NCBI GenBank assembly: GCA_041178425.1
Contig: JBEGVH010000028.1
Span: 1-60,544, forward strand
Direction: 5' to 3'
Source: Pseudomonadota bacterium
Lineage (GTDB): Bacteria > Bdellovibrionota > Bdellovibrionia > Bdellovibrionales > Bdellovibrionaceae
Length of the DNA: 60,544 bases
A program made the translations under genes and the position numbers. This document shows positions 1 through 35,906 of this stretch, piece by piece. How positions within the stretch are numbered: position 1 is the stretch's first letter; the number at the start of each line of letters is the position of its first letter. The notes under the pieces were generated by a model. That model ran no database searches. It worked only from the letters and a program-made list of their open reading frames with translations, and was not told the DNA's origin.

Positions 1-419
1 AATTTATGACATGTGAGATCGGGGTCAATGATCGGAGGATCAACTTTTGGTAATCCACAAAAATAAAACAAAGCCGCCACCGAAGACAAAGCGGCAAACA
101 AAATAGTTAATTCAAACATGACCGGAATGAACGCCGGCAAGCTGAATGGCGGTTTACCACCAACATTGATAGGCCAGTTCACCGCGCTCGTCCACCATGT
201 GAAGAGCAAGCCGGCTGAACAACCCGTGAGGCCAGCAATGAAAGTCACATAAGGAATATTTGAACGCTTGATCTCCATCGCCTCTTCCATGCCGTGAACG
301 GGATAGGGAGTGATAGCATCGAGTTTTTTAAAACCCTGACTACGACATTTTTTAACAGCCTCAACGAGCTGATGCTCGTCGAGCCAAATGCCAGCGATAC
401 CCGATTGAGTCTTAGCCAT
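1..419 (-). CDS. actD: Alternative complex III subunit ActD (DUF3341), runs off the left edge of the window
   Basis: Not in the ORF track. Manual translation from ATG at 419 gives [22 protein letters not shown]...[15 protein letters not shown]...[27 protein letters not shown]. The PYPVHG and GGKP...PAFIPxxFELTIL motifs are typical of ActD. Start overlaps the actC stop. Confidence 0.9.
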
Positions 420-1776
420 GGTGACCTCCGTGTGTATCATGTCCTACGTGAAGAACTGGTTTTACCTCAGCAATTGAAACCGCTGGGAACAGGCGTAGGT
501 ATAGTAAGAAGAGAGTAAAGAACATACCGAAACTTCCGATCAAGATCGAAGAATCCATCCACGTCCATCCGTACATTCCCCAATTAGAAGGAAGAAAATC
601 ACGATGGAGTGAAGTGACTGTGATCACAAAACGCTCGAACCACATACCGATGTTTACGAAAATCGAAACCACAAACATCACAGGAATCGAACGACGGAAC
701 TTTTTGAACCAGAAAACCTGCGGAGAGAGAACGTTACAGCTAACCATTGTCCAGTAAGCCCACGCGTAAGGTCCCAAAGCTCTGTTCATAAAAACGAAGC
801 GCTCGTAGGGGTTTCCTGAGTACCAAGCGATGAAAAATTCAGACGCATAAGCATAACCCACCAACAATCCAGTGGTCATGATGATCTTATTCATCACTTC
901 CATATGATCGAGGGTGATGTAGTCTTTGAATTGCGGAAAGCCAATTCTCACGAGAGTCATGAGCGTGATAACCATTCCGAATCCAGAAAAGATCGCTCCT
1001 GCAACGAAGTAAGGAGGAAAGATCGTAGTATGCCAACCAGGAAGATTTGAAACCGCGAAGTCGAACGATACGATCGTGTGAACCGATAAAACCAGTGGAG
1101 TCGACAAGCCTGCAAGCAAGAGATAAAGCATCTCGTAGTGACTCCAGTCACGTGCTGATCCTCTCCAACCCAAAGACAAAGCCCCGTAGATTGTTTTTCT
1201 AACTTTGTTCACTGCCCTATCACGAATAGTGGCAAAATCAGGTACTAAACCAATGTACCAAAAAACGATCGACACAGTGGCATAGGTGGAAACTGCAAAA
1301 ACGTCCCAAAGAAGTGGCGAACGAAAGTTGGTCCAAAGAGGTCCTCTCTGGTTTGGATATGGGAACAACCAGTAATCGAGCCAAGGACGACCTGTGTGGA
1401 GTAGCGGAAAAAGACCCGCTGTCATCACCGCAAAAACCGTCATCGCTTCGGCAGTTCGGGCCACCGATGTTCTCCATTTTTGTCGAAACAAGAATAGAAT
1501 AGCCGAAATCAATGTACCGGCGTGACCGATACCGATCCAAAAAACGAAGGTAACAATCATTGTACCCCAGCCAATTGGATTGTTAATACCTAACAATCCA
1601 ACCCCGGTGGCAACAAGGACGCCAATACAAGCGATGTAATAAAGAAATAGAGCTTTTGCGCTAAGAAACATTGCCAACCATCCACCGGAAGGCAGGCGCT
1701 CCACCGGAGCACAAATATCATCTGTGATATCTTTTAAGGTCTTGTTTCCAAGAACCAGTGGGTTCCGCTTGATCAT
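412..1776 (-). CDS. actC: Alternative complex III quinol-oxidising membrane subunit ActC (NrfD/PsrC family)
   Basis: Polytopic protein with [38 protein letters not shown] and GMWFERF motifs; overlaps the actB stop. Confidence 0.95.
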
Positions 1777-4700
1777 GCGTGCTCCCCTTTCTTCGCTTCT
1801 TCATGGCGCGGATTAATAGTTCGTTCATTGTTGTTTCTAATTTTTGTTTGATAACGAACAGCAGGTGCCGCGTTAAACTCCTCGATGAGAGCGTAACTAC
1901 GAGGCTCCTCTTTGAACTTCTTGTGAACTTGGCTTTGAGGATCGTTCACATCACCAAAAACGATCGCACCCGTTGGGCATGTTTGTTGACAAGCCACTTT
2001 GATATCGCCGTCTTTCATTTCGCGACCTTGTTGTTTCAACGAGTCTTTTGTTGATTTGATTCGCTGAACGCAGAAAGTGCATTTTTCCATCACACCGCGG
2101 ACTCGAACACCCACTTCTGGGTTGAAGGCAAGGTGCTCAGGATTTCTCATCTCTTTGCGATAATTGAACCAGTTAAAGCGACGTACTTTGTATGGACAGT
2201 TGTTCACGCAGTAACGAGTTCCAACGCAACGATTGTAAACCATTTCATTGAGACCTTCGTCGCTGTGAACAGTTGCCAGAACAGGGCAGACAGTTTCACA
2301 AGGAGCGTTGTCACAGTGTTGACACATGACTGGCTGGAACACCGCCTCAGCATCCGCTGGCTCACCGGTGTAATAGCGATCAATACGGATCCAATGCATT
2401 TCGCGACCTTGAAGAACAAACTTTTTACCAACAATCGGTACGTTGTTTTCAGATTGGCAAGCCACAACACAGGCGCTGCATCCAGTGCAAGTGTTGAGAT
2501 CAAGAGACATCGCCCATTTGTGACCATCGTAACGATGATGTGGCCAAATGGTGAAGATATGATGCTTATGCACACCTGCCGATTTGTTCTCGAGGTACTC
2601 TTTGAGAGTCGCTTCAATTACAATCGCACGGCCTTCCATTGTATGGTGCCCCTGAACATTCGCTAGTTGATACTTTTCGCCCAAAGCTTTTAGAGCAACA
2701 CTGCGACCTGAAAATACAGCCGCCTTGTTCTTCATAAGGACAAGCGGATAAGCATCAACACCGATACCAGTACCTACTTTACCGGATCGGGTTCTTCCGT
2801 AACCGATTGAAACAGCGACGACGTCGTCGTGCAAACCAGGCTGAATATGAGCAGGAATCTTGACTTTTAATCCATCAACATCGAGCTCAATTTTATCACC
2901 CTCGGAGACTTTCAATTTCTCAGCCGTAGCGAGAGAAATTGAAGCATAGTTATCCCAAACAATTTTTGTGACAACATCTGGAAGCTCTTGCAACCATCCA
3001 ATGTTAGCTAACTCACCTTGACCGAGCTGCACCGTCGGATAAAGAACTAACTCAAACCCTGACTTGGCTTCGGGCTTAATGCCCACAAGGGCATCTACTT
3101 TTGCGGTTCTTACAGCATCACGTTGGGATCTAAGGGCGCCCACAGTTCCTTTTTGAAGAACGTCGTACCAAAGGTCTTCGAATCCCTTTTCGCCCGAATT
3201 AATAATTTTTTCTTTCCAAACCATTCGGACCGCTTCAAAGTCGGTCTCAACTTTTGCTAATGACGATGAAGATCCAGACCACTTAGCAAAACCCAAAAGA
3301 ACACTTCGCGTGTCGTACATTGGGCGAATTGTTGGTTGTTGAATTGAATAGACACCAGCAACAGCTTCAGAATCTCCCCAACCTTCAACGTTGTGGTGAT
3401 CAACGGCAACGAAATCAGCGCGGATCGCTGTTTCATCCATATGCGAACCAGTGTAGACAACAGTTTCAACTTTTTCTAAAGCTTTTTTAAAGGCATCACC
3501 GAGGAAATAAACAGGATTTACACCGTGAATGATGAGAGTGTTGACTTTACCCTCATTCATAGCCGCCATTAGTCCCATAAGCTCTTCAGTTGACCCATTC
3601 AGCGCCACTTGTGCTTGTCCATAAACAACGGTGAAACCATCGTTGCCTAAAGCCGAGTTCAAGGCATTAACAGCGATCTGTAACAAGACAGCATCTTCTG
3701 TTTGCGCAGCGGTACCACCAGCAACAACGAGTGATTCGCCCTTTGCCTTCATTAAACTCTGGGCCACTTTAGAAATGGCTTGAGGATCTTTAAGGCCAAG
3801 TAATTCAGAGGCATTGGCATAAGCCGCAAGAGTTTGCTTAAGAGCAGGATTCATGGATAAGCCAGAAGACATATCTCCTTTGACTACGATCTCATGAAGA
3901 AGACCCATCACCACTGTTAATTGCTGAGAGGGTTTAATTTTAAAGCGCTTATCAGCGTTAGCACCAGTCAGTGAGTAATTAGTATCGAAGGAAACCAATT
4001 CACTCATTCCAACAACATCACGACGACCATCGGCGAATTGTTTGTTGAAGGCCATTGGAGTTAACCAAGTTCCGAGGAAATCGGCATCAACACTCACAAT
4101 GACACGCGCACGATCAAAACGATAGCTTGGAACCAAACCAGTTCCGTAACTTGCTTCTTGCCCTTTTGCCAAGGCATCAGGACTTGTCGGCTCCCAAGCC
4201 ACATGTTGAGCTTTTGTAGAACCTTGAAAATCTTTAATCATTTGACGAAGCGTTGGAGATGCTACATGACCAGTGAGAATCCATGTATTGCCTATAGAAA
4301 CAGCCGCTTTTACTTTATCGTCAAGATCAGACCAAGTGATACTAATGGTTTCGGCATTGCTACGCGCACCCTCTTTTGTTTTTTCATCACCTTGTCTTTG
4401 AAGATTATGCTTAGGCCCTTGCAAACGATCTGGGTCGTAGCACGACAACAACATCGCTTGACCACGGGCACTGAGAGCTCCAGCACTCAACGGGTGAGTT
4501 GGATTTCCTTCGAGCTTTATCGGACGACCTTCTTTAGTTTTTACGAGCAAGCCGAAAGTTTCAGAGCCATCAAACCAAGTCGAAGAATAGTGCAGAGCCT
4601 GCCCAAGAGTAACTTCTTCCGGCTGCTTAGCATAGGGAACAATTTTTTGCACCGGACGACGAAGACAACCCGCCGAACCAAGAGCTAATGAGGCACCCAT

Positions 4701-4919
4701 AAGCTTGAGGAATTCACGTCGAGCCCAACCGTCTTCGCGATCTTCTTCACGAAGGGGTGAGGACAAAAACTCTTGCTCGGCCATTTTTTGAAATTCAGGG
4801 TCTTTCCCCCACTGTTCAAGACTGCGCCAGTAGCGATCATCAGTCTCTACTTGAGGACGCATCGCCTTCTTCATCGCTTCAATTTCAGGGGAATGATCGT
4901 GGTGATTCATGTCTGACAT
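1773..4919 (-). CDS. actB: Alternative complex III subunit ActB (molybdopterin-oxidoreductase-like domain fused to an Fe-S domain)
   Basis: YWRSLE motif; Tat signal RREFLK...SAGC ending in a lipidatable Cys; [11 protein letters not shown]-terminal [35 protein letters not shown] and CTFC Fe-S motifs. Confidence 0.95.
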
Positions 4920-4938
4920 AATAGATAGTCTCCCGCAA

Positions 4939-5475
4939 TTAATGGTGACAAGTTGTACAGTTTAATGGCGCCTTGTTTTCTGGCTGCCGGTGACAATTAA
5001 TACACCAACCCATCGATAAATCTTCAAACTGGTAAACCGTTTTCATTGTATCAACAGGACCGTGACAAGTATTACAGCTCACACCCTTTTGCACGTGCGC
5101 AGAGTGATTGAATTGAACGTGATCCGGCAACATATGCACTCGAACCCATTCAATGGATTCACCTTTTTCGTAGGCTTCACGCATTTTAGTAATATGAGGA
5201 GAATCCGTCTTAACTTGGAGATGGCAATTCATGCAGGTACTCAAAGCTGGAATATTAGAGTGCTTCGAGCGCTCCACCTGATTGTGACAATATTGACATT
5301 TAATTCCATATTGGCCCACGTGAAGTGAGTGATCGTATGGAATTGGCTGATCAGGCTGATAATTCTTGTTATAACCGATGGCTGGCCGGAATTTACTACA
5401 AGCCCCCAAGACTAAGGCCAAAATTGCGAGACTTAGCCATGTCGTAATACGACCAAATGTTGCTACTTTCTGCAT
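4939..5475 (-). CDS. actA: Alternative complex III pentaheme cytochrome c ActA
   Basis: Five CxxCH motifs (CQYCH, CMNCH, CNTCH, CINCH, CTTCH), PDQPIPYDHSLH and MGWC; first gene of the act operon. Confidence 0.93.
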   Translation of the reverse strand: MQKVATFGRITTWLSLAILALVLGACSKFRPAIGYNKNYQPDQPIPYDHSLHVGQYGIKCQYCHNQVERSKHSNIPALSTCMNCHLQVKTDSPHITKMREAYEKGESIEWVRVHMLPDHVQFNHSAHVQKGVSCNTCHGPVDTMKTVYQFEDLSMGWCINCHRQPENKAPLNCTTCHH

Positions 5476-5937
5476 ACCCTCTTCCCGTAGTTAATGAGCT
5501 AAAAGCTAGACTTTCGTCGCCCATGGATGAAATTTTTATACTAGTGATCTAAGTCCCTATATAAAGACTATTTTTTTTGATTGTCCACGATCTTTTTGAA
5601 AATTTATTGAGAATGTTGACGATGTGTTGTGCCTATATCTTGAGCATTGAATTGGTTTTTAGCAAACTCAAATCACTGAGTGCTTTACCCTTGGGCATCG
5701 AAAAATGCCAGGAAACAAAACTTCCCGCAAAGGATAAAGCCAGTAAAAAGCCCCTCTGTAGGGCATCTCGAGACTTGTCTAAAAAATTCTTAACAATGAA
5801 GGGATCAGAAAACCAAAAATGAGAAGCTTCAAAGCAAATTTTTGGAGACTCTCATTTTTTTTGTGCTAACAAACAATTCTCAACCGAAAATCTTTGAAGT
5901 GCGATTCAAAATTAGCCTGCTTTTTAAGCTTAATATT

Positions 5938-7035
5938 TCAAACATCCAAAGGGTAGTCTGTATAACCTTTCTCACCTGGGGTATAAAAAGTGTTTGCATC
6001 TGCATCTACGAGCGCGTGATGATTCTTCATTTTTGAAACCAATTTAGGATTCGAAATAAAAGGTCTACCAAACGCAACCAGATCACCCTTTTTCTCTTGA
6101 AGATCCGCATCCGCTTTTCGCATATTGTAACCGCCAGAGAGAATAATTGCCCCTTTGAAATTCACGCGAACCGCTTGCTTTACACTGTCTTTAACTTCAG
6201 GGGCACCCATCGAACTATGATCGACTATGTGAACATAAAGAATCCCAAGTTTTTGCAACTCTTGCGCTAAACGCTCATAGAGATCATCGGTGTGTGAACA
6301 AGGAACCATTCCATTAAAAACGCCATAAGGCGACAAACGGATTCCTACTTTTTCTGGGCCAATCTTCTTTGCCACCGCTTTTACCACCTCAGAAGCAAAA
6401 CGAATGCGATTTTCAATCGAACCGCCCCAACGATCTGTTCTTTTGTTACTTGCCGTATTCAGAAACTGATCAACCAGATAACCATTGGCACCATGAATTT
6501 CAACACCATCGAAACCTGCTTGCATCGCTAGCTCGGCAGAGTGAGCAAACTCTTCGATTGTGTGTATAATATCACTTTCTGTCATTTCTTCTGGAATTGT
6601 AAAATTCTGCATCCCCGACTTATCAGTCCACATCTGCCCTTCCGGCGCAATCGCAGAAGGAGCAAGAATCTCTACACCGCTGGGCATATTATCTGGGTGA
6701 CTCACTCGACCACAATGCATGAGCTGAATAAATATTTTTGAACCCCCTTCATGAACCGCTTCAGTGACTTTTTTCCAAGCGTGCACGTGCTCATTCATAA
6801 AAAGACCAGGCATACGAGCATAACCTAATCCGTTATCCGACGGAGAGGTTCCCTCCGTAATAATTAATCCCGCTTCGGTTCTTTGACTGTAGTATTTGAC
6901 CACCAATTCATTGGGTCGATTGTCAATGCAACGACATCGAGTCATAGGCGCCATGACCACTCGATTTTTGAGTTTAAACGGACCTAACTGATGATTAGAG
7001 AATAAGTGATTATGATTATGATTCTGCCCGCCCAT
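5938..7035 (-). CDS. Old Yellow Enzyme family alkene reductase (NemA-like, FMN-dependent)
   Basis: NRVVMAPMTR, GLIITEGT, GFDGVEIHGANGYL (catalytic HxxNxY), AFGRPFISNP and C-terminal FY...GYTDYP. Confidence 0.93.
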   Translation of the reverse strand: MGGQNHNHNHLFSNHQLGPFKLKNRVVMAPMTRCRCIDNRPNELVVKYYSQRTEAGLIITEGTSPSDNGLGYARMPGLFMNEHVHAWKKVTEAVHEGGSKIFIQLMHCGRVSHPDNMPSGVEILAPSAIAPEGQMWTDKSGMQNFTIPEEMTESDIIHTIEEFAHSAELAMQAGFDGVEIHGANGYLVDQFLNTASNKRTDRWGGSIENRIRFASEVVKAVAKKIGPEKVGIRLSPYGVFNGMVPCSHTDDLYERLAQELQKLGILYVHIVDHSSMGAPEVKDSVKQAVRVNFKGAIILSGGYNMRKADADLQEKKGDLVAFGRPFISNPKLVSKMKNHHALVDADANTFYTPGEKGYTDYPLDV

Positions 7036-7204
7036 ACAAACAACTCCTGTTGATGCGTAAAAAAAATTTTAAAATAAATTAAGAGAGATTCAATGAGTTC
7101 CATCATTAAACCACACAAAGTCGGTGTCATCGAAGGATAAAAAAAGAGTCTTTATGACCCATATGCTATCTTGCCAAACCCCGGGCCATCGACCTCAGTA
7201 CTTA

Positions 7205-7540
7205 TTAGAAATTTTGAGCACCTGCAGAGACTATTCCGCGAACCTGACTTCCTGTCACAGATTGACTGCTGTTAGACACCGAAACTCGACCCATCATCTG
7301 CTGCCCCCCAACAACCTGTGAAGGGCTCGAATAACGAACGCTCACTGAACCATTGGCATTAAGAAGCGGCGTCATCGTGGTGGTTTCCGCAGGAACCTGC
7401 ACTTGATTGGCCTCTGGCTCTAATGACTCAGACGGACGCTCCACAACGGTCTTCTCACTTTCAATCATTGGCTGGTCGGCCTTTGAACATGCCACCAAGC
7501 CAAGTATCAACGCTACAGCGATTCCTATTTTCGTCATCAA
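7205..7540 (-). CDS. Small hypothetical lipoprotein
   Basis: TTG start preceded by AAAAGGATG; lipobox LGLVAC; low-complexity linker and a Ser/Val/Gln/Gly-rich C-terminus. Confidence 0.6.
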   Translation of the reverse strand: MMTKIGIAVALILGLVACSKADQPMIESEKTVVERPSESLEPEANQVQVPAETTTMTPLLNANGSVSVRYSSPSQVVGGQQMMGRVSVSNSSQSVTGSQVRGIVSAGAQNF

Positions 7541-7771
7541 ACATCCTTTTATCGCGAACCTACCGTCAGTTTACCAGATCGGTGGGGTCGTCGCCTAGGT
7601 CGTGCTGCGGTTAGCCTTTTTTACCCCCTCATACTCACACTCCGAGCTCGACCAATCGCTAGTCTTGTCTCCAAACGGGACGTCTTAAATCTAGACTCTC
7701 TGCGCTCAACACCAAAGCCGATATAAGAAGGAATCATTGGCTTAAAATCGTGAAAGGAGATCGCCATCCAC

Positions 7772-9793
7772 ATGAAAAAACTCAATCGTTGGATCCATCT
7801 CATTCTAGGAATAACTTTTATTTTCTTTGTTGCATTTGACTCTTCCGCAAAACCTTCGAAGACCTCAAACAAGGCTGCTGCCAAGAAGAGTAAAACCTCT
7901 CGACCCAAAAATACAAACTTACAAAAAGTTCAATTAGTTGAGCTCACCGCTCAAATCGAAAAACTCATTAGCGACGGTTATCGCGACAAAATCAACACTC
8001 AATTAGATGCCAAAGCTTTTAACGTGGGAGCCGTGGTCACCCTCAAAGAAGTCGTTGAGACCTACGACGCAAAAAAGCCCGGAGCCACACTCAGCGCAGT
8101 AAGAAACATTGCTGAAGCTGTAAATCCGACGGATCTCAATACCGGTGTGATTCAACTTTACCCCGTACTCGATCAATACAAACAACAAATCGATGAACTC
8201 CAAAACCGCGTCGAAGTTATGCGCCAAGGCGATCCGGAGACCATCGGAGAATCAACAGCGAAAAAAACACCCAAGTATTTGGTGAGCGGAGTTGAAATTA
8301 TTGTTGGTATCGACGAAGGCTTTAATTTTGATCAAAATGAAGAATTTGAAGCTTGGCTCCAAAACGCAGTAAAAAAAGATTTTGGTCCTCGAGGCAAATA
8401 CAAAATTTCAGTTCTCAAAAAGGTTGCCACTCCTATTGTTCCGCCAAAACCCATGACTCGTTTCGAAAAGTTATCTAAGGTCCAAATACTCCTCGGCTCA
8501 GGCTTTCTTGGCGTCGCCCTGTTATTCCTTTTAATCCTTTATAAATTTATTCCGGAGCGTGAATCTAAAAAACCTCGCCAAGTGTCTGTACACATTCAAG
8601 ACGTTTCGAGTTCCGCTCTCAACGCTTTAGAAGCAAAACAGAATAAAGCAACAAACCCAGCTAACAAACCCCAAGAGCTCGAAAAATCTCGTCCGACACT
8701 CGCTGCCACTGATAATTTAGAAATCGTGGCTCAGAGCTGTCGCGAGATCCAGGGGAAGATTGGCTACATTTACCTATCGACACCGGGAATCATCAATCCT
8801 CTTTTCGAAACTTGGTACGACCAAGGAATTGCCGGTAGGATGAAAGCTGCAGCTCTCGTAGACGCCGTGCTTACCTCATCGGAAAATGCCGATCAAAAAC
8901 TCCTGGTTTTTCCAGAAAAATGGAAAAAAGATGAAGAACTCCATCAAGCCTTCCGCGCCTTTCCAAGTGTTTCTCTCGAAGAAAGACACAGGATACTCGA
9001 CGAGGCGTATTGGGATATTCTTGCCCTGAATATGATCGGACAAGACTCCATTAAATCACACTTTGAAGTTTTGGGTCATCTCCCGGCAGATAGACTCCAA
9101 AAACTTTTGGCTAACAGAGAAAGCAAGGTCAAGGCATTAACCTTGATGCATTTACCTGCTGATAAGGCTCATCATTATTTAACTTTTCTCGACCAAGAAG
9201 AAAGAAAACGCCTCGTTCAAGAGAGCCTTCAATTTGAAACTGTTCCCGAAGAAGAACTAAAAACGCTCGACGAAAGCCTCAAACTTCAACTGGCCGTCGA
9301 ACAAAAGGCAGAGGGCATTGTGAATGTGGTCGATCTTATGCCGAACATCCTCCGATCACTCACTCCGAAAGAAGAACTAGAATGGCTCCCAGAAGCCATC
9401 GAGAAGCTTCCTGATCAAGGCTTTAAACTTAAAAAGAGCTATCCAAGCCTGGCCTTTTTAGTGGAGTGGCCCGAAGAATCTTTAGCCACTTTTTTTGCTG
9501 GTGTCGAAAGCAAACAAACAGTGATTTACCTCAAGTCCGTACCATCGATGATCGACAAAGTCACAAAACTTTACCCGACGGCGATGGGCACTTTGATTCG
9601 AGAGGAGGCTTACTCTCGAAAAACACCCAGCGAAAAAGAACAAGCAAAAGCTTTTCAATTCTTAAAAGAACGACTTCTAAATTTAACAGAATCCGGCGAC
9701 ATCCAGCTCGAGAGAATTTTCAAGGCTCCGACCGAAGACATCGCTACTACTCAAGATTCTGAAACCACAGACGAAGGGAATTCTGCGGCGTGA
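7772..9793 (+). CDS. Membrane-anchored FliF(ring/C-terminal)-FliG fusion-like rotor protein
   Basis: AAGGAG RBS; N-terminal signal/TM, a ~210-aa periplasmic part and a TM at aa ~239-257. Then a FliF-tail-like PGIINPLFETW, directly followed by FliG-N-like GRMKAAALV and VSLEERHRILDEAY, FliG-M-like FEVL..LPADRLQKLLAN..ALTLMHL...VPEEELKTLDESL, and FliG-C-like LIREE...LTESGDIQL. Stop overlaps the motA start. Confidence 0.75.
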   Translation: MKKLNRWIHLILGITFIFFVAFDSSAKPSKTSNKAAAKKSKTSRPKNTNLQKVQLVELTAQIEKLISDGYRDKINTQLDAKAFNVGAVVTLKEVVETYDAKKPGATLSAVRNIAEAVNPTDLNTGVIQLYPVLDQYKQQIDELQNRVEVMRQGDPETIGESTAKKTPKYLVSGVEIIVGIDEGFNFDQNEEFEAWLQNAVKKDFGPRGKYKISVLKKVATPIVPPKPMTRFEKLSKVQILLGSGFLGVALLFLLILYKFIPERESKKPRQVSVHIQDVSSSALNALEAKQNKATNPANKPQELEKSRPTLAATDNLEIVAQSCREIQGKIGYIYLSTPGIINPLFETWYDQGIAGRMKAAALVDAVLTSSENADQKLLVFPEKWKKDEELHQAFRAFPSVSLEERHRILDEAYWDILALNMIGQDSIKSHFEVLGHLPADRLQKLLANRESKVKALTLMHLPADKAHHYLTFLDQEERKRLVQESLQFETVPEEELKTLDESLKLQLAVEQKAEGIVNVVDLMPNILRSLTPKEELEWLPEAIEKLPDQGFKLKKSYPSLAFLVEWPEESLATFFAGVESKQTVIYLKSVPSMIDKVTKLYPTAMGTLIREEAYSRKTPSEKEQAKAFQFLKERLLNLTESGDIQLERIFKAPTEDIATTQDSETTDEGNSAA

Positions 9794-10578
9794 ATGGCTC
9801 GGTGCTCCTAGGCATTCTAGTAGCTCTTACTGTCTTCTTCGGTGGACTCTCGAGTTCATCGAACAACATGAACATTTTCTATAATGCTCATGCGCTCGCT
9901 ATTGTCATTGGTGGAACGATCGCTGCAGCCCTTGTTAGCTTTCCCTTCAAGCAACTTTGGAGAATTAAACTCATCGTTCTCCGAAAGGTCATCGGACGCC
10001 AAGGGGAACCAATCCAAGATGTCATTGGAGAAATAGTCCTACTCTCGGCTCTCAATCGGGAAGAACCAGAGAACTTTCGTGAAAAATCAAAAATAGCCAG
10101 AGACTCCTTTTTAAGAGAGGCCCTCGAACTTTATCTTGATAGCGCCATCCCTCAAGAAAAAATTGAGAGTCTCCTGCGCAAGCGAGCCGAAATCAACTTA
10201 CTTCGACAAGAATCAGAGGCCAATGTGATTCGCTCGATTGCGCGATTCCCCCCGGCTTTCGGACTCCTCGGAGCTGTCATGGGCATGATCACACTTTTAA
10301 GAAGCCTCGGAGCTCCCGACTCCTTTAAACAAATCGGACCCGCTATGGCTATGGCCATGGTTGCGACCATGTACGGAATTGCGATGGCTAACTTTTTTCT
10401 TTTGCCCATCAGCAGTAATTTATCGAAACTGGCACAAGAGGAATTTCTAAGACGAAGCATTATTATTGATGGGATTAAACTCATTCAAGGCGGAGAACAT
10501 CCTCTGATCGTCGAGGAAAACTTGAAAAGCTATCTACAGTCAGGCGAAAAGGTCAATAAGAAGGCTTTTGCTGCATGA
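9790..10578 (+). CDS. motA: MotA-family stator A subunit
   Basis: NAHALAIVIGGT, DSFLREAL, FPPAFGLLG, IGPAMAMAMVATMYG and IIDGIKLIQGGEHP; GTG start overlaps the upstream TGA. Confidence 0.93.
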   Translation: MNGSVLLGILVALTVFFGGLSSSSNNMNIFYNAHALAIVIGGTIAAALVSFPFKQLWRIKLIVLRKVIGRQGEPIQDVIGEIVLLSALNREEPENFREKSKIARDSFLREALELYLDSAIPQEKIESLLRKRAEINLLRQESEANVIRSIARFPPAFGLLGAVMGMITLLRSLGAPDSFKQIGPAMAMAMVATMYGIAMANFFLLPISSNLSKLAQEEFLRRSIIIDGIKLIQGGEHPLIVEENLKSYLQSGEKVNKKAFAA

Positions 10579-11381
10579 TTCATCCCCGATTTAATCGACG
10601 CTATCGCAGTCAAAATGCCTCGAAGGTCAAAGACGTCTTAACCTTACTTGAAACGACCACCTCCTCTCAAAAAGCGACCGCCGACGCTCCTTCACCGATC
10701 GAAAACCCACTGGTTGTGCTAAGAAGAATTGCCAATACCGAAGAGGCCGAAAGCGATTCCATTTGGCTTATTTCCTACGCCGACCTTATGACCCTCTTGT
10801 TTGGTTTTTTTGTGATGCTAATGACGTTCTCTAAGATTGATCAGGAGAACTTCGAAAAAGCGCGCAAAGAAACCACTCGCTTCTTTGGCGGCGAGTACAA
10901 ACTGCCCATGCAGAAACTACAATCTGATTTAGCCAAAGAAGTTCATCAACAGCAACTGGCTGAACAAGTTCATTTTGAGCTTGATAACCGAGGATTGTCG
11001 GTGACTTTTCGGGGAGCCCTCTTCTTCGATTCGGGATCTGCAGAGCTCCGACCAGAAGCGGAGGCTCTCACTCAAAAAATCTTACCCGTCATAAAAAACC
11101 TCGGACCAGATATAAAAATAATTGTTGAGGGACATACCGATGATAGTCCTATTTACGATGAACGCTTCCCCAGTAACTGGGAACTCTCCAGTTATAGGGC
11201 GACCCGCGTGTTGAGGCTTCTTCAGACCCTTGGAGTTCCCAAAACCCAACTTCGAGCCATTGGATTTGGAGACTCAATGCCGGCCTTTCCAAACCGCGAT
11301 GAGAAAGGCCACGTGATTGCCGAAAATCAGAGCCAAAATCGCCGCGTCGTTTTACGAATTATCCGCTCCACGGATAACTAG
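10575..11381 (+). CDS. motB: MotB-family stator B subunit with OmpA-like peptidoglycan-binding domain
   Basis: WLISYADLMTLLFGFF with the essential Asp, a plug helix, FDSGSAEL, VEGHTDD, NWELSSYRA and NRRV; ATGA overlap with motA. Confidence 0.95.
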   Translation: MIHPRFNRRYRSQNASKVKDVLTLLETTTSSQKATADAPSPIENPLVVLRRIANTEEAESDSIWLISYADLMTLLFGFFVMLMTFSKIDQENFEKARKETTRFFGGEYKLPMQKLQSDLAKEVHQQQLAEQVHFELDNRGLSVTFRGALFFDSGSAELRPEAEALTQKILPVIKNLGPDIKIIVEGHTDDSPIYDERFPSNWELSSYRATRVLRLLQTLGVPKTQLRAIGFGDSMPAFPNRDEKGHVIAENQSQNRRVVLRIIRSTDN

Positions 11382-11388
11382 CTTTTAT

Positions 11389-12414
11389 TTACCTTATTTC
11401 TATATTGTAGCCCTGACTGAGGCTCTTCTGAAAGTTTTCTTCGGTGAAGGGCTGAACCTTAAATTCAAAAGATTCATGATAGGCTTCGTCTGTGAAGGTC
11501 CACTCAAATTTCGAATCCGTGAGCGAATCAACAGTTAATTCATGGACGGGGCGCTGCCCTCTAAAAAAACTCTCTTTTACAATAATACGCCGATCTTTTT
11601 TTATTATTAATTCACAACTCTCTTCGCAAAGAGGTCGGGCGGCTATCCGAATGGTGTCGGGAACGTTCATCAAAAAAACGATTTTATTTTCTGGTTGTGG
11701 AAAGGTCGAAGGCACTCGACTGGCCCCTAACCTCACTTTATCGGCCGAGAGCTCCTGAGGATCGCCGAACTCTTCTTTTTTAGCCCAGATTTCTTGTGAA
11801 TCGACAACTGCAAAAAGTCTTTCAATTTTATACCTTTTATTCATATAGAGATTGATGTCGTGTATGAGAGGCTGTATCCATTCATCGCCAGTGGCTCTCT
11901 CGGCCACAACACCCTCAATCGTTGGTCGAATAAAGGTTAACCCCGGTTCGAGCTCGATAGACTGATTCAATAATCCTGTGCTCACAACGATTGATCTTGC
12001 AAATTCAGTCTTTAAGAGAACATAGCCATTCATCAAATGGAGTCGGAGGTTTTGATCCTCAAAGAACATTTGAATTTTCGCCCCCGCAGGGAGAGTCATT
12101 CCAAAACCTGGCCCCAATTCGAACTCAGCTCGACCAGATCTGACGGTCTCGATCAAATCGCCATCAAACAATGGGTCGCCTTTTTGGATTGGGATAAGAA
12201 TCGAATCATGCAAGACCTTGCGCTGAACAACGCCCTCGACAACAACCACCTCTCCGATCAGAGACAAATCACTTTTGTTGGTACTCAGAAAGCGAAGGAT
12301 CACGGGATCAACAGAAATCCAGCTTAGCAGAACCAAAATAACTGCGGCACTAACGAGAAGCCACTCGTAATCTAGACGAAAGATGGAGGCGGGCCTAAAT
12401 TTTATTTTCCACAT
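11389..12414 (-). CDS. Single-pass membrane protein with FecR-like beta domain
   Basis: N-terminal TM followed by IGEV...VQRK...GDPLFDGDLIETVRSGRAEFEL, the FecR-domain GDx(l)xxGDxIxT pattern. Confidence 0.65.
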   Translation of the reverse strand: MWKIKFRPASIFRLDYEWLLVSAAVILVLLSWISVDPVILRFLSTNKSDLSLIGEVVVVEGVVQRKVLHDSILIPIQKGDPLFDGDLIETVRSGRAEFELGPGFGMTLPAGAKIQMFFEDQNLRLHLMNGYVLLKTEFARSIVVSTGLLNQSIELEPGLTFIRPTIEGVVAERATGDEWIQPLIHDINLYMNKRYKIERLFAVVDSQEIWAKKEEFGDPQELSADKVRLGASRVPSTFPQPENKIVFLMNVPDTIRIAARPLCEESCELIIKKDRRIIVKESFFRGQRPVHELTVDSLTDSKFEWTFTDEAYHESFEFKVQPFTEENFQKSLSQGYNIEIR

Positions 12415-12495
12415 CTGCTAAAAATAGTAAATACTATAGACAGGGAATGTCTACGCTTTTTGGACCAAACAATTAATATTTAGACATTAGGTGAA

Positions 12496-13980
12496 ATGAA
12501 GCTTAGTCTGAAATTTTTATTTTTTACTATTGGACTTCCGAGCCTGGCGCTTTTCGTATTTATTTTAATCTCATACCAAAATATCACCGAAGACAAAACT
12601 CAGACGCTGAATCATAATGCCAATACCCTGGCACTCACCATCGCCCAACAACTAGACTCCACAGACTGGATGTCCATCGCGCCAACACTCAAAAGAATCA
12701 TTCCTACACAAGCCATTGTCTTTAACAAAGAAGGACAAATCGTTGCGACCTCGAATGCGTCGTTACTCGAAAAAGATCTCGGAGTTTTTTTAACTAAAAG
12801 CGCCGAAGAAAAATACGCCATGCACCCAGCCAACGAGGGCTCCTTTGAAGACTACGCTGCCGATGGCCGAAGCGCGATTTTCAATTTTGTGCGGCTCCCA
12901 GAGCAAGTCGGAACACTCATGCTAGTGACAAAAAAGGATGATGCCTTTCGATCAGTCTTTCTCTTGATCGCGAAATCAGTCGCCGTTTTTTTTGTATTTA
13001 TTCTGATTGGATTTGGAACGTCACTTTGGTTTGCCAGGTCTGTCTCCGCCCCGTTGGAAATGATTGCAGACCACACCCATAATTTGGCCTCCGGAAACTT
13101 TAATATTTGCCTTCCCAATTTAGGCCAAGACGAACTCGGCAGCCTGGGTGACCAATTTAATTCGATGATTCAAAAACTAAGAAAATCTCTCAGTGACCGA
13201 GAAAAGTCGTTAAAAATTGAATTTGAAAAAGAAATCGCGATCGAAAATCAAAGAATCTTCTACCCCTCAAAAAACTTCAAAACAGAAAATATAGAGATTT
13301 GTACGGCCGCCATTTCTAATCTGTTGGGAGAAAAAGATTGGTGGTATTACTCGCAAACGCCTACTCATTTAATCGTCTGCATGATTCGATTACCCTCTCT
13401 CGCCTCACAGGCATCGATTTTAAGTGCGGTGGCCCGAACCTCCTTAGGGTTTATTGCAGAGAACTTTTCGAGTACCGCCAAGGCAACAGCTCAGCTTCAT
13501 CGCAGCCTTTTAGAATGCACAAAAGGATCCTTCGAGACTCCGTGTCTTTTCTTAGCCATCGACCTATCGTCAGGTCTCTTAAGCTATACAAGTGCAGGGT
13601 TCCGCCCGCCGCTTTACGTGTTTAACGCCACAGCAGATAAGCAGTCAGAAGATCTCGAAATCTTGGAACCTAATCACAACCGAGGAGTCGGACGAACCGC
13701 CGATGACACCTTTCAAAACGCCCAGTTTCAACTCTCTCCTCAATCGACTTTGTTTATTCACTCAAGTGGCCTTTATCAGATTAAAAACCCAAAAATGGAA
13801 CACTTGAGCCTCGAAACCATCGAGCTCTGGATGAAAGAAACCAATGCCAACCAGTCAAACCTAGAGAGCTTAAAGGTATTAACAAACAATCGAATCAAAA
13901 ACTTCAGAGGTAATACTGACAGTGAAAGCGACCTTACCTACATGTTTATACGATGGAGTCCTCATGTTGAAAAAGCTTAG
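12496..13980 (+). CDS. Two-TM sensor with HAMP domain and degenerate SpoIIE/PP2C-like domain
   Basis: Two TMs flank a Cache-like region; HAMP motif PLEMI...GNF...DELGSLGDQFNSM; PP2C-like DWW, LSYTSAGFRPP and TLFIHSSGL; most metal-binding Asp residues are absent. Confidence 0.8.
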   Translation: MKLSLKFLFFTIGLPSLALFVFILISYQNITEDKTQTLNHNANTLALTIAQQLDSTDWMSIAPTLKRIIPTQAIVFNKEGQIVATSNASLLEKDLGVFLTKSAEEKYAMHPANEGSFEDYAADGRSAIFNFVRLPEQVGTLMLVTKKDDAFRSVFLLIAKSVAVFFVFILIGFGTSLWFARSVSAPLEMIADHTHNLASGNFNICLPNLGQDELGSLGDQFNSMIQKLRKSLSDREKSLKIEFEKEIAIENQRIFYPSKNFKTENIEICTAAISNLLGEKDWWYYSQTPTHLIVCMIRLPSLASQASILSAVARTSLGFIAENFSSTAKATAQLHRSLLECTKGSFETPCLFLAIDLSSGLLSYTSAGFRPPLYVFNATADKQSEDLEILEPNHNRGVGRTADDTFQNAQFQLSPQSTLFIHSSGLYQIKNPKMEHLSLETIELWMKETNANQSNLESLKVLTNNRIKNFRGNTDSESDLTYMFIRWSPHVEKA

Positions 13981-14587
13981 TTTAACTTACCCACTGATCC
14001 TCCTTGGAACACTCTCTAGCTGTTCGCCCACTTTAACCGTTAAATCTGAGCCCGCCGGGGCCAATGTTTTTCTCTTAAAATCGAATGGCGAAAAACAATC
14101 CTTGGGAACCACTCCGCTGGTGGTAAAGGTGAATGAGATTGAGACCATGGCCCCCCTCACTTCGATGACGGGAGAAATGCTTCCACTCTCGTTCGAGGCC
14201 AGCGGCTTTAGAACGACAGAGGTTCTCGTTCCACCGATGCGCACCGGAATCATTGATGCCGGCATCAATGTGCAACTACGTCCAGAGGCTGCGGCAACTT
14301 GCAACAATGCCTCAGCGGATGAACTCCTCCGCTACTTACATAATGCACAAAAATTTGCGAATGCAGGGGTTTACCAAGCCGCCATCGATGAGGTTAACAA
14401 GGCGACCGAAAAGAACCCCCAATTCATTCGAGCCTACTCCATGAAGGGTTCTATTTATTTTGTTCAAAATCGACTCGACGAAAGTCAAGCGATGTACGAG
14501 AAAGCTCTTACAATTGATCCTAACTTTGATGAAGCCATAAAAATGATCGCTGAAATTAAAAAGAAGAAGAAGGCTGGGCCGCGATGA
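13964..14587 (+). CDS. PEGA-domain plus TPR lipoprotein
   Basis: ATG at 13964 with GGAG RBS; lipobox TLSSC; PEGA motif VKSEPAGANV...LGTTPL; TPRs AYSMKGSIYF...YEKALTIDPNF. Confidence 0.82.
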   Translation: MLKKLSLTYPLILLGTLSSCSPTLTVKSEPAGANVFLLKSNGEKQSLGTTPLVVKVNEIETMAPLTSMTGEMLPLSFEASGFRTTEVLVPPMRTGIIDAGINVQLRPEAAATCNNASADELLRYLHNAQKFANAGVYQAAIDEVNKATEKNPQFIRAYSMKGSIYFVQNRLDESQAMYEKALTIDPNFDEAIKMIAEIKKKKKAGPR

Positions 14588-15165
14588 AATTGAGTCGTTT
14601 AAAACTCTTCACTCTTTGTTTAATCTTCACTCCATTTACTCACGCTGAAGTTTCTAGAATTAGAGCGAGTGCCTCTGCCGGCTTCGGACAAGCTCAAGTC
14701 AAAGATCAAAACTACAAGAGCGCCGATCTTCAGGGTCCTATCAGCAACACCTTCACTGTCGATTATTCGGCGAATGGCGAATCTGAGTGGGGAGTCGAAC
14801 ATAAAAGAACCTGGAGTGCGAGGAGCGGAACCGCTGTGGGCCTCACCGGACTCACATACAAAAATTTCTTTTGGCATAGTCGTCCTCAAATCGAAAGTGT
14901 TCCCTTTCCTCGACTCCCGCGCGGACAATGGGATATTCATGCTATTTCTCCTTACATTGGTGCTTCCGCGGGCATTGGCCAAGCCAGCATCATTGATAAA
15001 AAAATGAACGCGATTGGTTTTTACCTTGGAGTTACGGGCGGTTTAGACTGGTATTCACAGCGAAACTGGGGACTACGAATGGAAGCTTCTGGGAGCGCGA
15101 CATTAGGAGGCCAAGGCCGCATCGACACCGTCTCTGCAGGCCTTGGAATATACTTAAATCTCTGA
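14584..15165 (+). CDS. Putative small outer-membrane beta-barrel protein
   Basis: Signal peptide (FTHA|E); alternating Gly/aromatic strands SPYIGASAGIGQ, GVTGGLDW, WGLRMEA and a terminal GLGIYLNL; ATGA overlap with the upstream gene. Confidence 0.7.
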   Translation: MKLSRLKLFTLCLIFTPFTHAEVSRIRASASAGFGQAQVKDQNYKSADLQGPISNTFTVDYSANGESEWGVEHKRTWSARSGTAVGLTGLTYKNFFWHSRPQIESVPFPRLPRGQWDIHAISPYIGASAGIGQASIIDKKMNAIGFYLGVTGGLDWYSQRNWGLRMEASGSATLGGQGRIDTVSAGLGIYLNL

Positions 15166-15192
15166 TCTAGATGACTGATCTAAATTGCTGAT

Positions 15193-15936
15193 CTATTCTG
15201 CTGAGGCTAAACAAATTTTACTGAAGCTTATTGGATCAAGCGAAGCTCCGCCAACAAGGAACCCATTGACGTCTTTGATACGTAAAAGTTCCGATGCATT
15301 TTCAGGCTTCACACTACCACCATAAAGGATCGGCGTCTCTGCTGATCCTCCTTGAGAAATAATATAAGCGCGAATTTGAGCATGAGCTTCAGCCACCTGC
15401 TCCACCGATGCTACCTTTCCGGTGCCAATCGCCCAAACCGGCTCGTAGGCGACGATCCACTCTTTCTTTAGATCAATAGCATCCATGAAAGCTTTTAGTT
15501 GTTTTTCACAAACAGATTTTGTTTGGCCGCCTTCGCGCTCCTCCAACGTTTCACCAATACATAACATCGGTACCAGTTCGAGCGACTGAACCAACTGACC
15601 TTTAGTGGCAATGGAAGAATCCGTTTCTCCAAATATCTGACGTCTCTCACTGTGACCCAACAGAATCAGTTGACCACCAATGTCTTTTACAACGGGTGCA
15701 GAGATTTCTCCGGTAAAAGCTCCGCTCCCTTGACTAAAGCAGTTCTGCGAACCAAAACGCATCGACGTTTCAACAAGCGATTGAGCCGTGGCTTCGAGAT
15801 TAGTGGCTGGAACAAAAAAAACAATCTTGCTTTGTAAATCGTTAGAGACCAACCCTTTAAAGTTTTTAAAAAACTCGCGTGATTCGCGGGGGCCCTTGTT
15901 TAATTTCCAGTTAGCGGCAAAAATAATAGTTTTCAC
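15193..15936 (-). CDS. tpiA: Triosephosphate isomerase
   Basis: AANWKLN, GAFTGEIS, LGHSERR, AYEPVWAIGTG, YGGSVKP and GFLVGGASL; likely GTG start at 15936. Confidence 0.97.
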   Translation of the reverse strand: MKTIIFAANWKLNKGPRESREFFKNFKGLVSNDLQSKIVFFVPATNLEATAQSLVETSMRFGSQNCFSQGSGAFTGEISAPVVKDIGGQLILLGHSERRQIFGETDSSIATKGQLVQSLELVPMLCIGETLEEREGGQTKSVCEKQLKAFMDAIDLKKEWIVAYEPVWAIGTGKVASVEQVAEAHAQIRAYIISQGGSAETPILYGGSVKPENASELLRIKDVNGFLVGGASLDPISFSKICLASAE

Positions 15937-26103: not shown

Positions 26104-26304
26104 GTTCAACTCCTTTGCTCCGCGGGGCCAATGCGCCCCTTCTTTATGCAGTCTCGAGACCAGCTCCCAGTGCGGCAAAGCGCAGAACAAAGGGAGGCAA
26201 TGGAACTATTTACTGTCGCTCTGCCGAAAATGCGCCGCGACTTGGCTTCGGTGATGGACAGATGTCGGCAAACCTGTTTCTATCCGCGGCCAGATGGGGG
26301 CTTC

Positions 26305-33128: not shown

Positions 33129-33143
33129 AGAAGGACCATCGTT

Positions 33144-33857
33144 ATGGAACACGGACACATTAAAGTCACTATTGATGGCAAAGACATTCTCGCAAAAGAG
33201 GGACAATCCATTGTGCAGGCAGCTCGCGACAATGGAATTTACGTTCCCACTCTCTGTGATTTCAAAAGCCTCCAACCTGCGGGCACTTGCAGGGTTTGTA
33301 CTGTGAAAGTGGGAGGCCGCTTCGTTTCTGGTTGTACCACTCAAGTCAGCTATGGAATGGTGGTTGAAAACGAATCTTCCGAGCTCATCGATTTGCGCAA
33401 ATCACTCATTGAAATGCTTTTTGTTGAGGGCAACCACATGTGCCCGAGTTGTGAAAAATCAGGCAATTGTGAACTTCAAGCTCTCGCTTACCGCTACCGC
33501 ATGACCGCGCCTCGATTTCCATTTTCATTTACTCAGCGGAAACTCGACGCCTCGCTACCGCACCTTGTTCTAGAGCACAATCGATGTATCCAGTGCCTCC
33601 GCTGTGTTCGAGGGGTAAAAGCTAAAGATGGCCATGATCTTTTTGGATTCACAGACCGTGGCGGAAATATCCAAATCACCATCGACTCAACTGATCCAGA
33701 ATCCGCCTCAGAATCGACCGCACAAAAAGCAATGGATATTTGCCCCGTGGGAGCTTTGATAAAAAAAGGCTCGGCCTATAAAGTTCCCATTGGCGAGCGT
33801 AAATACGACAATGAACCGATTGGCTCCGATATTGAAAAGCAAGGAGAACATTCATGA
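33144..33857 (+). CDS. hoxU: Diaphorase Fe-S subunit HoxU
   Basis: PTLC...GTCRVC...GC [2Fe-2S], HMCPSCEKSGNC His-ligated cluster, and CIQCLRC...CPVGAL. Confidence 0.93.
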   Translation: MEHGHIKVTIDGKDILAKEGQSIVQAARDNGIYVPTLCDFKSLQPAGTCRVCTVKVGGRFVSGCTTQVSYGMVVENESSELIDLRKSLIEMLFVEGNHMCPSCEKSGNCELQALAYRYRMTAPRFPFSFTQRKLDASLPHLVLEHNRCIQCLRCVRGVKAKDGHDLFGFTDRGGNIQITIDSTDPESASESTAQKAMDICPVGALIKKGSAYKVPIGERKYDNEPIGSDIEKQGEHS

Positions 33858-34402
33858 GTAAGAAAAAACTCGTTATGGCCACCACATCTCTCGCTGGATG
33901 CTTTGGGTGCCATATGGCGTTTCTCGACATTGACGAGCGGATTCTCGATCTCGTTGAATTAGTCGAATTCAACAAGTCGCCCATCGATGATATCAAAACC
34001 TTTACCAAAGACGTCGACGTGGGAATTATCGAAGGAGGCTGTTGTAACAGCGAAAATGTTCGTGTTCTTCGCGAATTTCGCAAACACTGCAAAATTTTAA
34101 TTTCGATGGGCCAATGTGCAATCACAGGTGGACTGCCCGCCATGCGAAATGGCATTCCACTCAAAGAATTATTTGCCGAGGCTTATGAAGATGGTCCAAC
34201 GGTAGACAATAAATTGATACCCAACGATGACGAAATACCGATGCTTCTCGATCGTGTTTACCCTTGCCATGAAATTGTTAAAATTGATGCTTTCTTACCA
34301 GGGTGTGCACCCCGCGGAGACTTAATTTGGGAAGCTCTCACTGCCATTATAGAAGGTAAAAGCCTCGATCATCTTTCGTACGAAAATTTTAAATACGACT
34401 AA
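33854..34402 (+). CDS. hoxY: [NiFe]-hydrogenase small subunit HoxY (single proximal cluster)
   Basis: SLAGCFGCHM, IEGG, GQCAITGG and PGCAP; no Tat signal. Confidence 0.93.
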   Translation: MSKKKLVMATTSLAGCFGCHMAFLDIDERILDLVELVEFNKSPIDDIKTFTKDVDVGIIEGGCCNSENVRVLREFRKHCKILISMGQCAITGGLPAMRNGIPLKELFAEAYEDGPTVDNKLIPNDDEIPMLLDRVYPCHEIVKIDAFLPGCAPRGDLIWEALTAIIEGKSLDHLSYENFKYD

Positions 34403-34414
34403 GGAACAATTATT

Positions 34415-35881: not shown

Positions 35882-35906
35882 ATGAGAACCCTATAAATCG
35901 GAAGCT

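Follow-up and report, generated by a model that had tools for sequence, protein, structure and literature searches.

A natural FliF-FliG fusion encoded with motAB, a lipoprotein and an outer-membrane barrel in Bdellovibrionota: a putative non-flagellar rotor-stator module

Introduction

In the bacterial flagellum FliF forms the MS ring, its tail co-folds with the N-terminal domain of FliG (FliG-N), and MotA drives the FliG C-terminal domain (FliG-C); the ring-building domains RBM1 and RBM2 of FliF house the export gate. Engineered FliF-FliG fusions are known and functional, and textbooks know MotAB-driven FliG from the flagellum only. Here we describe a gene module in which a natural fusion of parts of FliF and FliG is encoded together with its own motA and motB, a lipoprotein gene and a gene for an outer-membrane barrel. 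It lies on contig JBEGVH010000028.1 (60,544 nucleotides, the whole of which is called the window below) of assembly GCA_041178425.1, a Pseudomonadota bacterium that GTDB places in the Bdellovibrionaceae and whose genome is referred to as G000. An initial annotation had read three of these genes as rotor and stator in one operon.

The sole natural FliF-FliG fusion found in print is a different protein, from the Chlamydiaceae; it has about 330 amino acids (aa), two transmembrane helices (TMs) and a cytosolic part matching the FliG middle domain (FliG-M), and it is discussed with the injectisome (PMC4768692). It too is a natural single chain in a non-flagellated bacterium, whereas the module protein has 550-820 aa, keeps RBM3 and FliG-C, and has its own MotAB. 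A natural fusion is also said, in papers on the FliF-FliG interface, to occur in Chlorobaculum; our searches did not return it, and we treat it as unconfirmed. The type IX and gliding apparatus of the Bacteroidota comprises a GldLM (PorLM) motor, a PorKN ring and the 8-stranded PorG (PMC12635249). Its likeness to the module is a functional analogy only (ion-driven motor, ring, 8-stranded outer-membrane barrel, large surface proteins): family scans found no Gld/Por homology, the core proteins matching FliF, FliG, MotA and MotB families and none of them the GldL/GldM motor, PorK/PorN ring or SprA translocon; the module's ring would be an inner-membrane derivative of FliF and FliG; and no cysteine that could form a disulfide link is conserved in its barrel. 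We know of no ExbBD, TolQR, AglRQS or ZorAB motor that acts on a FliG ring. These non-flagellar 5:2 motors resemble the module stator as MotA/MotB-superfamily ion motors outside the flagellum (in part from PMC12505986), whereas the module stator scores as flagellar-type. Literature searches, which leave most subscription journals and some supplements outside their reach, found no published description of the module, and its members are named "FliG C-terminal domain-containing protein" or "hypothetical protein" in the databases. We regard the module as new as a system, though every part of it comes from a known family.

The locus

Three open reading frames (ORFs), at 7772-9793 (673 aa), 9790-10578 (262 aa) and 10575-11381 (268 aa), each overlap their neighbor by 4 bp (GTGA and ATGA), as the initial annotation had it. 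A second contig, from a different study, covers window positions 5900-15400 without a break or gap, differing by 129 substitutions; thus the gene arrangement and the fusion are not an artefact of assembly, an origin that the full-length homologs described below also rule out. The view of rotor and stator in one unit stands as far as the linkage to motAB goes, but the unit is larger than three genes, since a PEGA/TPR lipoprotein and an outer-membrane barrel encoded at 13964-15165 belong to it. Promoter and terminator scans gave counts at chance level (14 versus 9.6 and 10 versus 9.6). The core features are as follows.

7772..9793, forward strand: FliF(RBM3)-FliG fusion of 673 aa, putatively the single-chain subunit of a rotor ring (profiles, fold, family of 150 clusters at E ≤ 1e-10)
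7913..8419, forward strand: periplasmic FliF RBM3-like domain, aa 48-216 (MS-ring entries at Z 11.9, 11.1 and 10.7; Atlas FliF_C lead)
8471..8560, forward strand: single TM, aa 234-263, equivalent of FliF TM2 (hydropathy scan)
8729..8833, forward strand: helices like the FliF C-terminal tail, aa 320-354 (hhalign probability 91%, E 9e-7)
8825..9013, forward strand: degenerate FliG-N-like helices, aa 352-414, directly joined to the tail (hhalign E 6e-4, weak)
9059..9709, forward strand: FliG-M (aa 430-508) and FliG-C (aa 553-646) domains (profile and fold)
9790..10578, forward strand: stator A subunit of MotA type and of the module's own lineage, 262 aa (PF01618, E 2.6e-22)
10575..11381, forward strand: MotB-type stator B subunit, 268 aa, with plug/TM Asp70 and an OmpA-like peptidoglycan-binding domain (PF13677, E 2e-14; PF00691, E 3.5e-17)
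13964..14587, forward strand: core PEGA-like/TPR lipoprotein, 207 aa from the likely start (lipobox, TPR, synteny)
14584..15165, forward strand: core 8-stranded outer-membrane beta-barrel, 193 aa (model, fold match, synteny)

FliF and FliG parts in a single chain

Word-index searches for homologs yielded four proteins each, and the family was defined instead by a full HMMER scan, which gave 191 clusters with a limit of E ≤ 0.001 and 150 with one of E ≤ 1e-10, the proteins being for the most part 570-700 aa long; 119 near-full-length homologs out of 153 make up the alignment and profile A1. The fusion consists of a signal peptide (hydrophobic at aa 4-22 by hydropathy), RBM3, one TM, the FliF tail, a degenerate FliG-N, and FliG-M and FliG-C. 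Its AlphaFold model has a mean predicted local distance difference test score (pLDDT) of 81.5 and a predicted template modeling score of 0.47. The top 11 rows of a Foldseek search with this model are all FliG entries, and the wide structural search and the profiles agree with the likeness to FliF and FliG that had been proposed.

The periplasmic segment was suggested earlier to be a ring-building domain of FliF, and aa 48-216 do superpose on the RBM3/S-ring domain (Z 11.9, root-mean-square deviation [rmsd] 3.0 and 98 aligned residues for 8z5v; Z 11.1 for 6scn; Z 10.7 for a third entry), the best structural row unrelated to FliF or FliG having Z 7.8. A profile of canonical FliF, built with that of FliG from 21 FliF/FliG pairs of the same phylum, matches the start of RBM3 (E 9e-4), and the Atlas lead for the segment is FliF_C (score 0.89). 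In the model, the insert between the two long strands is a loop and helix (aa 129-152) and not a full beta-collar. RBM1, RBM2 and the first TM are lacking, as had been supposed: there is no PF01514 match, the model has a single RBM domain, and canonical FliF is matched only from its own residue 225 onward. One TM lies between RBM3 and the tail in 41 of 41 fusions by hydropathy.

The passage from FliF tail to FliG-N falls where it was initially placed, at W348 to K358 (nucleotides 8813-8845), and this 11-residue span is retained in 111 of the 119 homologs. The tail matches aa 320-354 (hhalign probability 91%, E 9e-7) and FliG-N matches aa 352-414 weakly (E 6e-4, probability 28%, 59 columns); none of 40 column shuffles reached the scores of the tail, FliG-N and RBM3 start. 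Of the three FliG domains annotated, M and C are borne out in full and N only in part. The FliG-MC profile matches aa 430-647 (E 4.5e-17), profile A1 matches the middle and C-terminal domains of the solved structure 1lkv (E 3.9e-19), and the folds agree (FliG-M, Z 13.0 and rmsd 1.4; FliG-C, Z 11.2 and rmsd 2.5). With the 673-aa protein alone, Pfam places FliG_M above its cut-off and FliG_C below, and its FliG_N match sits on aa 455-535, which is the M domain. The fusion is thus real, its FliG-N is partial, and RBM1 and RBM2 are missing.

The stator

MotA and MotB are intact, in agreement with the initial annotation: the window MotA has the channel helices and scores above the MotA_ExbB cut-off (PF01618, E 2.6e-22), and MotB has the plug, Asp70 and an OmpA domain. 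The best NCBIfam matches of the window MotA are PomA, MotP and MotA, all below their cut-offs, and these flagellar-type matches lie far above TolQ. The MotB Asp motif is present in 44 of 44 module MotBs. In a MotA tree the window protein groups with those of two loci in which motA also directly follows the fusion gene; because its careful search was incomplete and the branches of the flagellar MotAs are very long, the tree gives no placement of the module stators relative to the flagellar ones. The end branch of the window MotA is 1.0 against a median of 0.27, which suggests fast change of MotA in the window's lineage.

Lipoprotein, barrel and accessory genes

The lipobox cysteine of the lipoprotein is invariant in 34 of 34 aligned sequences, all 34 of which have TPR and six of which have PEGA. 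At one locus (L047:10326-11104) the lipoprotein gene is broken into two ORFs of 110 and 116 aa; it was scored as present. The barrel model has eight strands (pLDDT 87.5) and resembles NspA (Z 17.9, rmsd 3.0, 146 aligned residues) and the OmpA/OprF barrels (Z 16.1); there is no conserved cysteine column among 30 aligned barrels. A predicted complex of RBM3, barrel and lipoprotein scored 0.21 against a mark of 0.32, which is evidence neither way.

In the window the lipoprotein and barrel genes are placed behind two accessory genes, and one other locus (L061) is ordered alike. The FecR Pfam match is below the cut-off and concerns one relative only, the window copy having none.

11389..12414, reverse strand: accessory protein with a membrane anchor and a loose likeness to FecR (family at 10 of 41 loci)
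12496..13980, forward strand: accessory membrane sensor with HAMP and SpoIIE (PP2C-like) parts (family at 12 of 41 loci)

Distribution and gene order

The survey covered 401 genomes of the phylum, and all its match counts are lower bounds. Profile A1 finds matches at E ≤ 1e-120 in at least 33 places in at least 32 of these genomes; weaker full-length matches represent further subfamilies. Two groups of loci were compared: the first is the window plus 40 fetched loci with about 9 kb on each side (many ended by contig ends), and the second is 20 loci chosen from the weaker matches, with fusions of 550-820 aa. The first group (n = 41) has the lipoprotein at 39 loci, the barrel at 31, motA at 25 and motB at 24; at its 33 closest loci the numbers are 32, 31, 20 and 19. 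In the second group lipoprotein, motA and motB are each present at 20 of 20. Over all 61 loci the lipoprotein is found at 59 and motA nearby at 45, so that the linkage of homologs to motAB elsewhere, on which the initial annotation depended, is real. The commonest gene order is lipoprotein-fusion-barrel, often followed by motA-motB. One second-group subfamily (L105-L117, L123 and L124) has fusions of 710-820 aa; most of these are acidic at the position of the torque arginine discussed below and have a cyclic nucleotide (cNMP)-binding gene placed between them and motA. Beyond the phylum, Atlas clusters of 550-680 aa and similar make-up in Balneolota, Pseudomonadota, Myxococcota and Bacteroidota are candidate leads.

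Relation to the flagellum

Whether a canonical fliF-fliG exists apart from the fusion was a question that the initial annotation had left open. In G000, which is 100% complete by markers, there is one in a flagellar operon on contig C13, and on C10 a motAB pair stands beside flhB-flhA-flhF-flhG-fliA (gene names read from ORFs); the genome also encodes a FliM. Thus the window unit is additional to the flagellum, and the possibility that the window fusion is the only fliF/fliG of its genome is ruled out. In none of the 61 loci does the module lie inside a flagellar operon; flagellin-like genes occur near some second-group loci.

G000 also has a third motAB (C40:80596-82388, locus L143) with no fusion nearby, which converges on four large lipoprotein-like genes (688, 688, 763 and 1311 aa, with weak Lcl_C and NHL matches). 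The C40 MotA scores as module-type (E 7.7e-52, versus 4.9e-11 for the C10 MotA), and this pair may be either a remnant or an additional stator serving the window's ring. Away from flagellar genes, at C6:143993-144694, lies a gene for a free-standing protein of 233 aa that FliG_C matches weakly (E 1.9e-4, below the cut-off).

The fusion and MotB are kept, while FliF-N, flagellin, FlhA, rod proteins and FliM all go unmatched, in four genomes from three families: G381 (99% complete, 20 contigs), G210 (97%), G059 (91%) and G052 (89%). This is in line with the flagellum-independent occurrence first supposed; these are draft genomes in which absence is not proof, and the markers missing from each are five separate ones. 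A further candidate, G244, has no FliF-N match yet carries flagellin, FlhA and rod genes, and was dropped from this set. In G381 and G210, 24-26 kb separate motAB from the lipoprotein-fusion-barrel block. This interval holds a GYF-domain gene, genes for a long helical protein and a LysM lipoprotein, another gene that is conserved, and genes for three large lipoproteins with fn3, Ig-like, NHL and FG-GAP families, whose lengths are about 1950, at least 870-950, and about 2300 aa. G210 has a second module (L144:2844-12057) with genes for a 1591-aa fn3/TIG protein, a lipoprotein, MotA, MotB, a 554-aa protein and a barrel; the 554-aa protein is unmatched by the family profile.

The RBM3-TM-tail-FliG subunit, MotA/MotB, the lipoprotein and the barrel travel as one unit, also in genomes without detectable flagellar genes. 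With the flagellar motor's core the module shares the RBM3 fold, a TM, the FliF tail joined to a degenerate FliG-N, FliG-M and FliG-C, and a stator of flagellar type that has the channel Asp, a plug and an OmpA domain. It differs in lacking RBM1/RBM2, the first TM and a full beta-collar (having a helical insert instead), in its shortened FliG-N, in having no FliM/FliN, in its dedicated lipoprotein and barrel, and in its presence in genomes where no flagellar genes are detected. A search of the unit for an export gate, a rod, a hook, a filament or the FliM switch found none of them; the module is therefore not a member of the flagellum. Nor does it match the SctJ/SctD rings of the injectisome with their export gate (SctV/FlhA), and four module-bearing genomes gave no FHIPEP or YscJ_FliF match.

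A homologous module in Bdellovibrio bacteriovorus HD100

A search of named genomes with the second subfamily gave nine Bdellovibrio and two Oligoflexia records, with motA and motB beside the fusion in all of them. By homology, B. bacteriovorus HD100 carries such a module, Bd3014 with motAB2; this model predator is a harmless strain that is amenable to genetics. The 577-aa "FliG protein" of the type strain shares a 90% cluster with one second-subfamily fusion, and the window-type and Bd3014-type subfamilies align over 562 columns (hhalign probability 99.7%). The entries of the HD100 gene table (PMC3627812, supplement) for Bd3014 (577 aa), Bd3016, Bd3017 (194 aa), Bd3018 (302 aa), Bd3020 and Bd3021 fit the module in order and size, and the HD100 primers for Bd3021 and Bd3020 (motAB2; PMC11323537, supplement) land on the module motA and motB. 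Full-length homology, lipoprotein, barrel-sized gene, motA and motB are common to the HD100 and window modules; HD100 differs in its distinct subfamily (577 aa), its gene order and its extra gene Bd3016. In the searchable papers Bd3014 is only annotated and is nowhere called a fusion of FliF with FliG or a machine in its own right, and "Bd3014" does not occur in main text among the matches listed.

All six proteins (Bd3014, Bd3016, Bd3017, Bd3018, Bd3020 and Bd3021) were detected in the HD100 proteome, with 22, 16, 2, 18, 31 and 17 peptides, and the five module proteins with a time course are lowest at 3-4 h inside prey and up again by 5-7 h (PMC12546842). In attack-phase mRNA the module stands at 0.5-13.5 reads per kilobase per million (called silent), versus 1725 for fliF, 2046 for fliG and 332 for motA3 (PMC3627812). 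The lengths of the motAB1 proteins (Bd0144/Bd0145; 262 and 249 aa) are like those of module stators, and the available table shows no fusion-sized neighbor among Bd0141-Bd0146 (PMC3627812); judged by these lengths, motAB1 is possibly an orphan module stator.

An electron cryotomography preprint reports a "rose-like complex" that spans the envelope of attack-phase cells, has a cytoplasmic ring of 17 nm and is not seen inside prey; its authors compare it to a type I secretion system (10.1101/2022.06.13.496000). We consider it improbable that the module is this complex. A ring of 17 nm is well below the diameter of the flagellar FliG ring.

Rotary machine, scaffold, flagellar part or relic

The module is in our judgment probably a non-flagellar rotor-stator machine, and on balance we favor, with somewhat less assurance, the fuller reading that it is a flagellum-independent, ion-driven rotary machine of the envelope made from the torque-generating core of the flagellar motor. 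The observations that weigh against this reading are taken up in the following paragraphs. The module is known here through sequence, fold, synteny and the published HD100 expression data; a ring and its rotation are inferred from flagellar biology.

The first specific point concerns the torque helix. The E. coli residues here are R281, D288 and D289, facing MotA R90 and E98 (PMC12505986); their placement on the module proteins is our own alignment. The acidic pair is E611/E612 in the window, and it is kept in 34-35 of the 41 first-group and 15-18 of the 20 second-group fusions. The arginine, present in 21 of 21 canonical FliGs, is Arg or Lys in just 14 of the 41 and 3 of the 20; it is Ala604 in the window and is replaced by an acidic residue in 14 of the 20 second-group fusions. 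Torque coupling may therefore be altered or lost, and these sequences suggest a changed stator-rotor interface that leaves room for a non-rotating device energized by the proton motive force. In such a device a static ring would serve as scaffold or load sensor while MotAB pulls or signals, in the manner of Tol/Ton or of stator-based surface sensing, and the HAMP-SpoIIE, FecR-like and cNMP-binding neighbors would be the read-out. We regard this as unlikely, while giving it more weight than the other alternatives. It fits the poorly kept arginine, the HAMP-SpoIIE gene at 12 and FecR-like gene at 10 of 41 loci, the cNMP-binding gene that stands between fusion and motA at 12 of 20 second-group loci, and a module in which a shaft or filament gene is not evident; it has to be set against the retention of FliG-M, FliG-C and the acidic torque residues, the match of the stator to flagellar-type families far above TolQ, and the presence of the sensor genes at a minority of loci. 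On the MotA side, counterparts of R90 and E98 occur at the right spacing in the window copy, with a one-residue gap relative to flagellar MotA that leaves the register uncertain, and with the same uncertainty the rotor-facing positions among 45 aligned MotAs are Arg in 25 and Asp or Glu in 24. On the rotor side the acidic residue is real, but we make no claim for an exchange of charges between rotor and stator, which we had considered, since the MotA register is uncertain.

The second point is that most bearers of the module are flagellated. Canonical FliF is found in 71 of 76 genomes chosen for a fusion-type match, and G000 itself is flagellated. In HD100 the time course of the module proteins is shared by FliF, FliG and MotAB3 (PMC12546842), so timing does not tell module and flagellum apart, although their attack-phase mRNA levels do differ. 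Host-independent expression is contradictory: motA2 and motB2 mRNA rose 289-639-fold by quantitative PCR in axenic fliL mutants and 1.4-2.2-fold in their biofilm (PMC11323537), and on an array Bd3014 and Bd3021 were down in host-independent growth (PMC2797640). A 2026 review has the three motAB pairs power one propeller type (PMC13689555). The flagellated genomes, the shared time course, the review and the rise of the motA2 and motB2 mRNA would suit a module that is an auxiliary part of the flagellum, its MotAB a second stator set and its fusion an extra ring or a parking scaffold for stators. All three motAB pairs of HD100 are also said, in the title of Morehouse et al. 2011, to contribute to flagellar motility, which weighs against the favored reading and could also be a matter of stator cross-talk; the module stator could engage the flagellum in this way. 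An auxiliary role nevertheless seems quite unlikely to us, because four genomes without detectable flagellar genes keep the unit and because it is never within a flagellar operon in 61 loci. A motif of FliG-M that we take to be FliM-binding is, moreover, degenerate in the fusions. In two-hybrid assays the flagellar FliL Bd1076 binds MotB3 and not MotB2 (PMC11323537), which also speaks against it.

The identity of the fusion to FliF and FliG is low (10-21%), strong full-length matches are patchy (the 32 or more of 401 genomes above), and the window MotA has a long branch, all of which might be expected of a functionless, decaying relic of a duplicated or lost flagellar cluster. This we hold to be highly improbable, given open frames of 550-820 aa over many families with a fixed junction spacing, conserved partners, a MotB Asp motif without exception among 44 proteins, and 22 unique peptides for the HD100 protein in the proteome.

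The last set of points concerns the possible load. Large ORFs rich in Ser, Thr, Asn, Gly and Val (a crude composition rule) flank 28 of 40 first-group loci, versus 21 of 143 tiles of G000, an association with giant lipoproteins that is suggestive for the first group only. Large-lipoprotein neighbors occur at one of 20 second-group loci and are not found in the window, the background for large ORFs comes from one genome, and the loci are related and not independent. Large lipoproteins beside some modules (L061:5959-8538) join fn3 with an FGE-sulfatase domain; a title cited in PMC12635249 has the PorKN ring of type IX use a repurposed FGE fold.

How the rotary machine might work

If the favored rotary reading is right, flagellar biology would have the fusion polymerize through RBM3 and FliG contacts into an inner-membrane ring, which wall-anchored MotA5B2 units would turn via FliG-C. 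Since RBM1 and RBM2 are missing, no export gate would be held, and since FliM and FliN are missing there would be no chemotactic switch and turning would be one-way. By analogy, force may be handed on to lipoprotein and barrel, much as PorG is borne by the PorKN ring but with no disulfide, and so move or export surface lipoproteins; we offer this output tentatively. Comparably tentative is the broader picture in which the machine derives from the flagellar basal body, or is related to its ancestor, forms a mirror image of the injectisome in that it retains rotor and stator and has no export gate, moves or exports giant surface adhesins across the outer membrane, and is represented in B. bacteriovorus by Bd3014-Bd3021.

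Other genes in the window

Three further groups of genes were labeled by eye. Those at 412-5475 resemble subunits of alternative complex III; the five at 31302-36410 resemble a soluble NAD-linked [NiFe] hydrogenase with a maturation protease; and 24211-26190 encodes a 659-aa exported protein with a Pro-Thr repeat linker ahead of a peptidase-like C-terminal part.

Significance

The module keeps the FliG/MotAB core, drops the export gate and the switch and persists without flagella, and it thus bears on the origin and reuse of the flagellar motor. If the rotary reading is true, it would offer a naturally minimal rotary motor. Likewise, if Bd3014-Bd3021 encodes a separate machine, motAB2 would not primarily be a flagellar stator, which would explain in another way the several motAB pairs that Bdellovibrio keeps.

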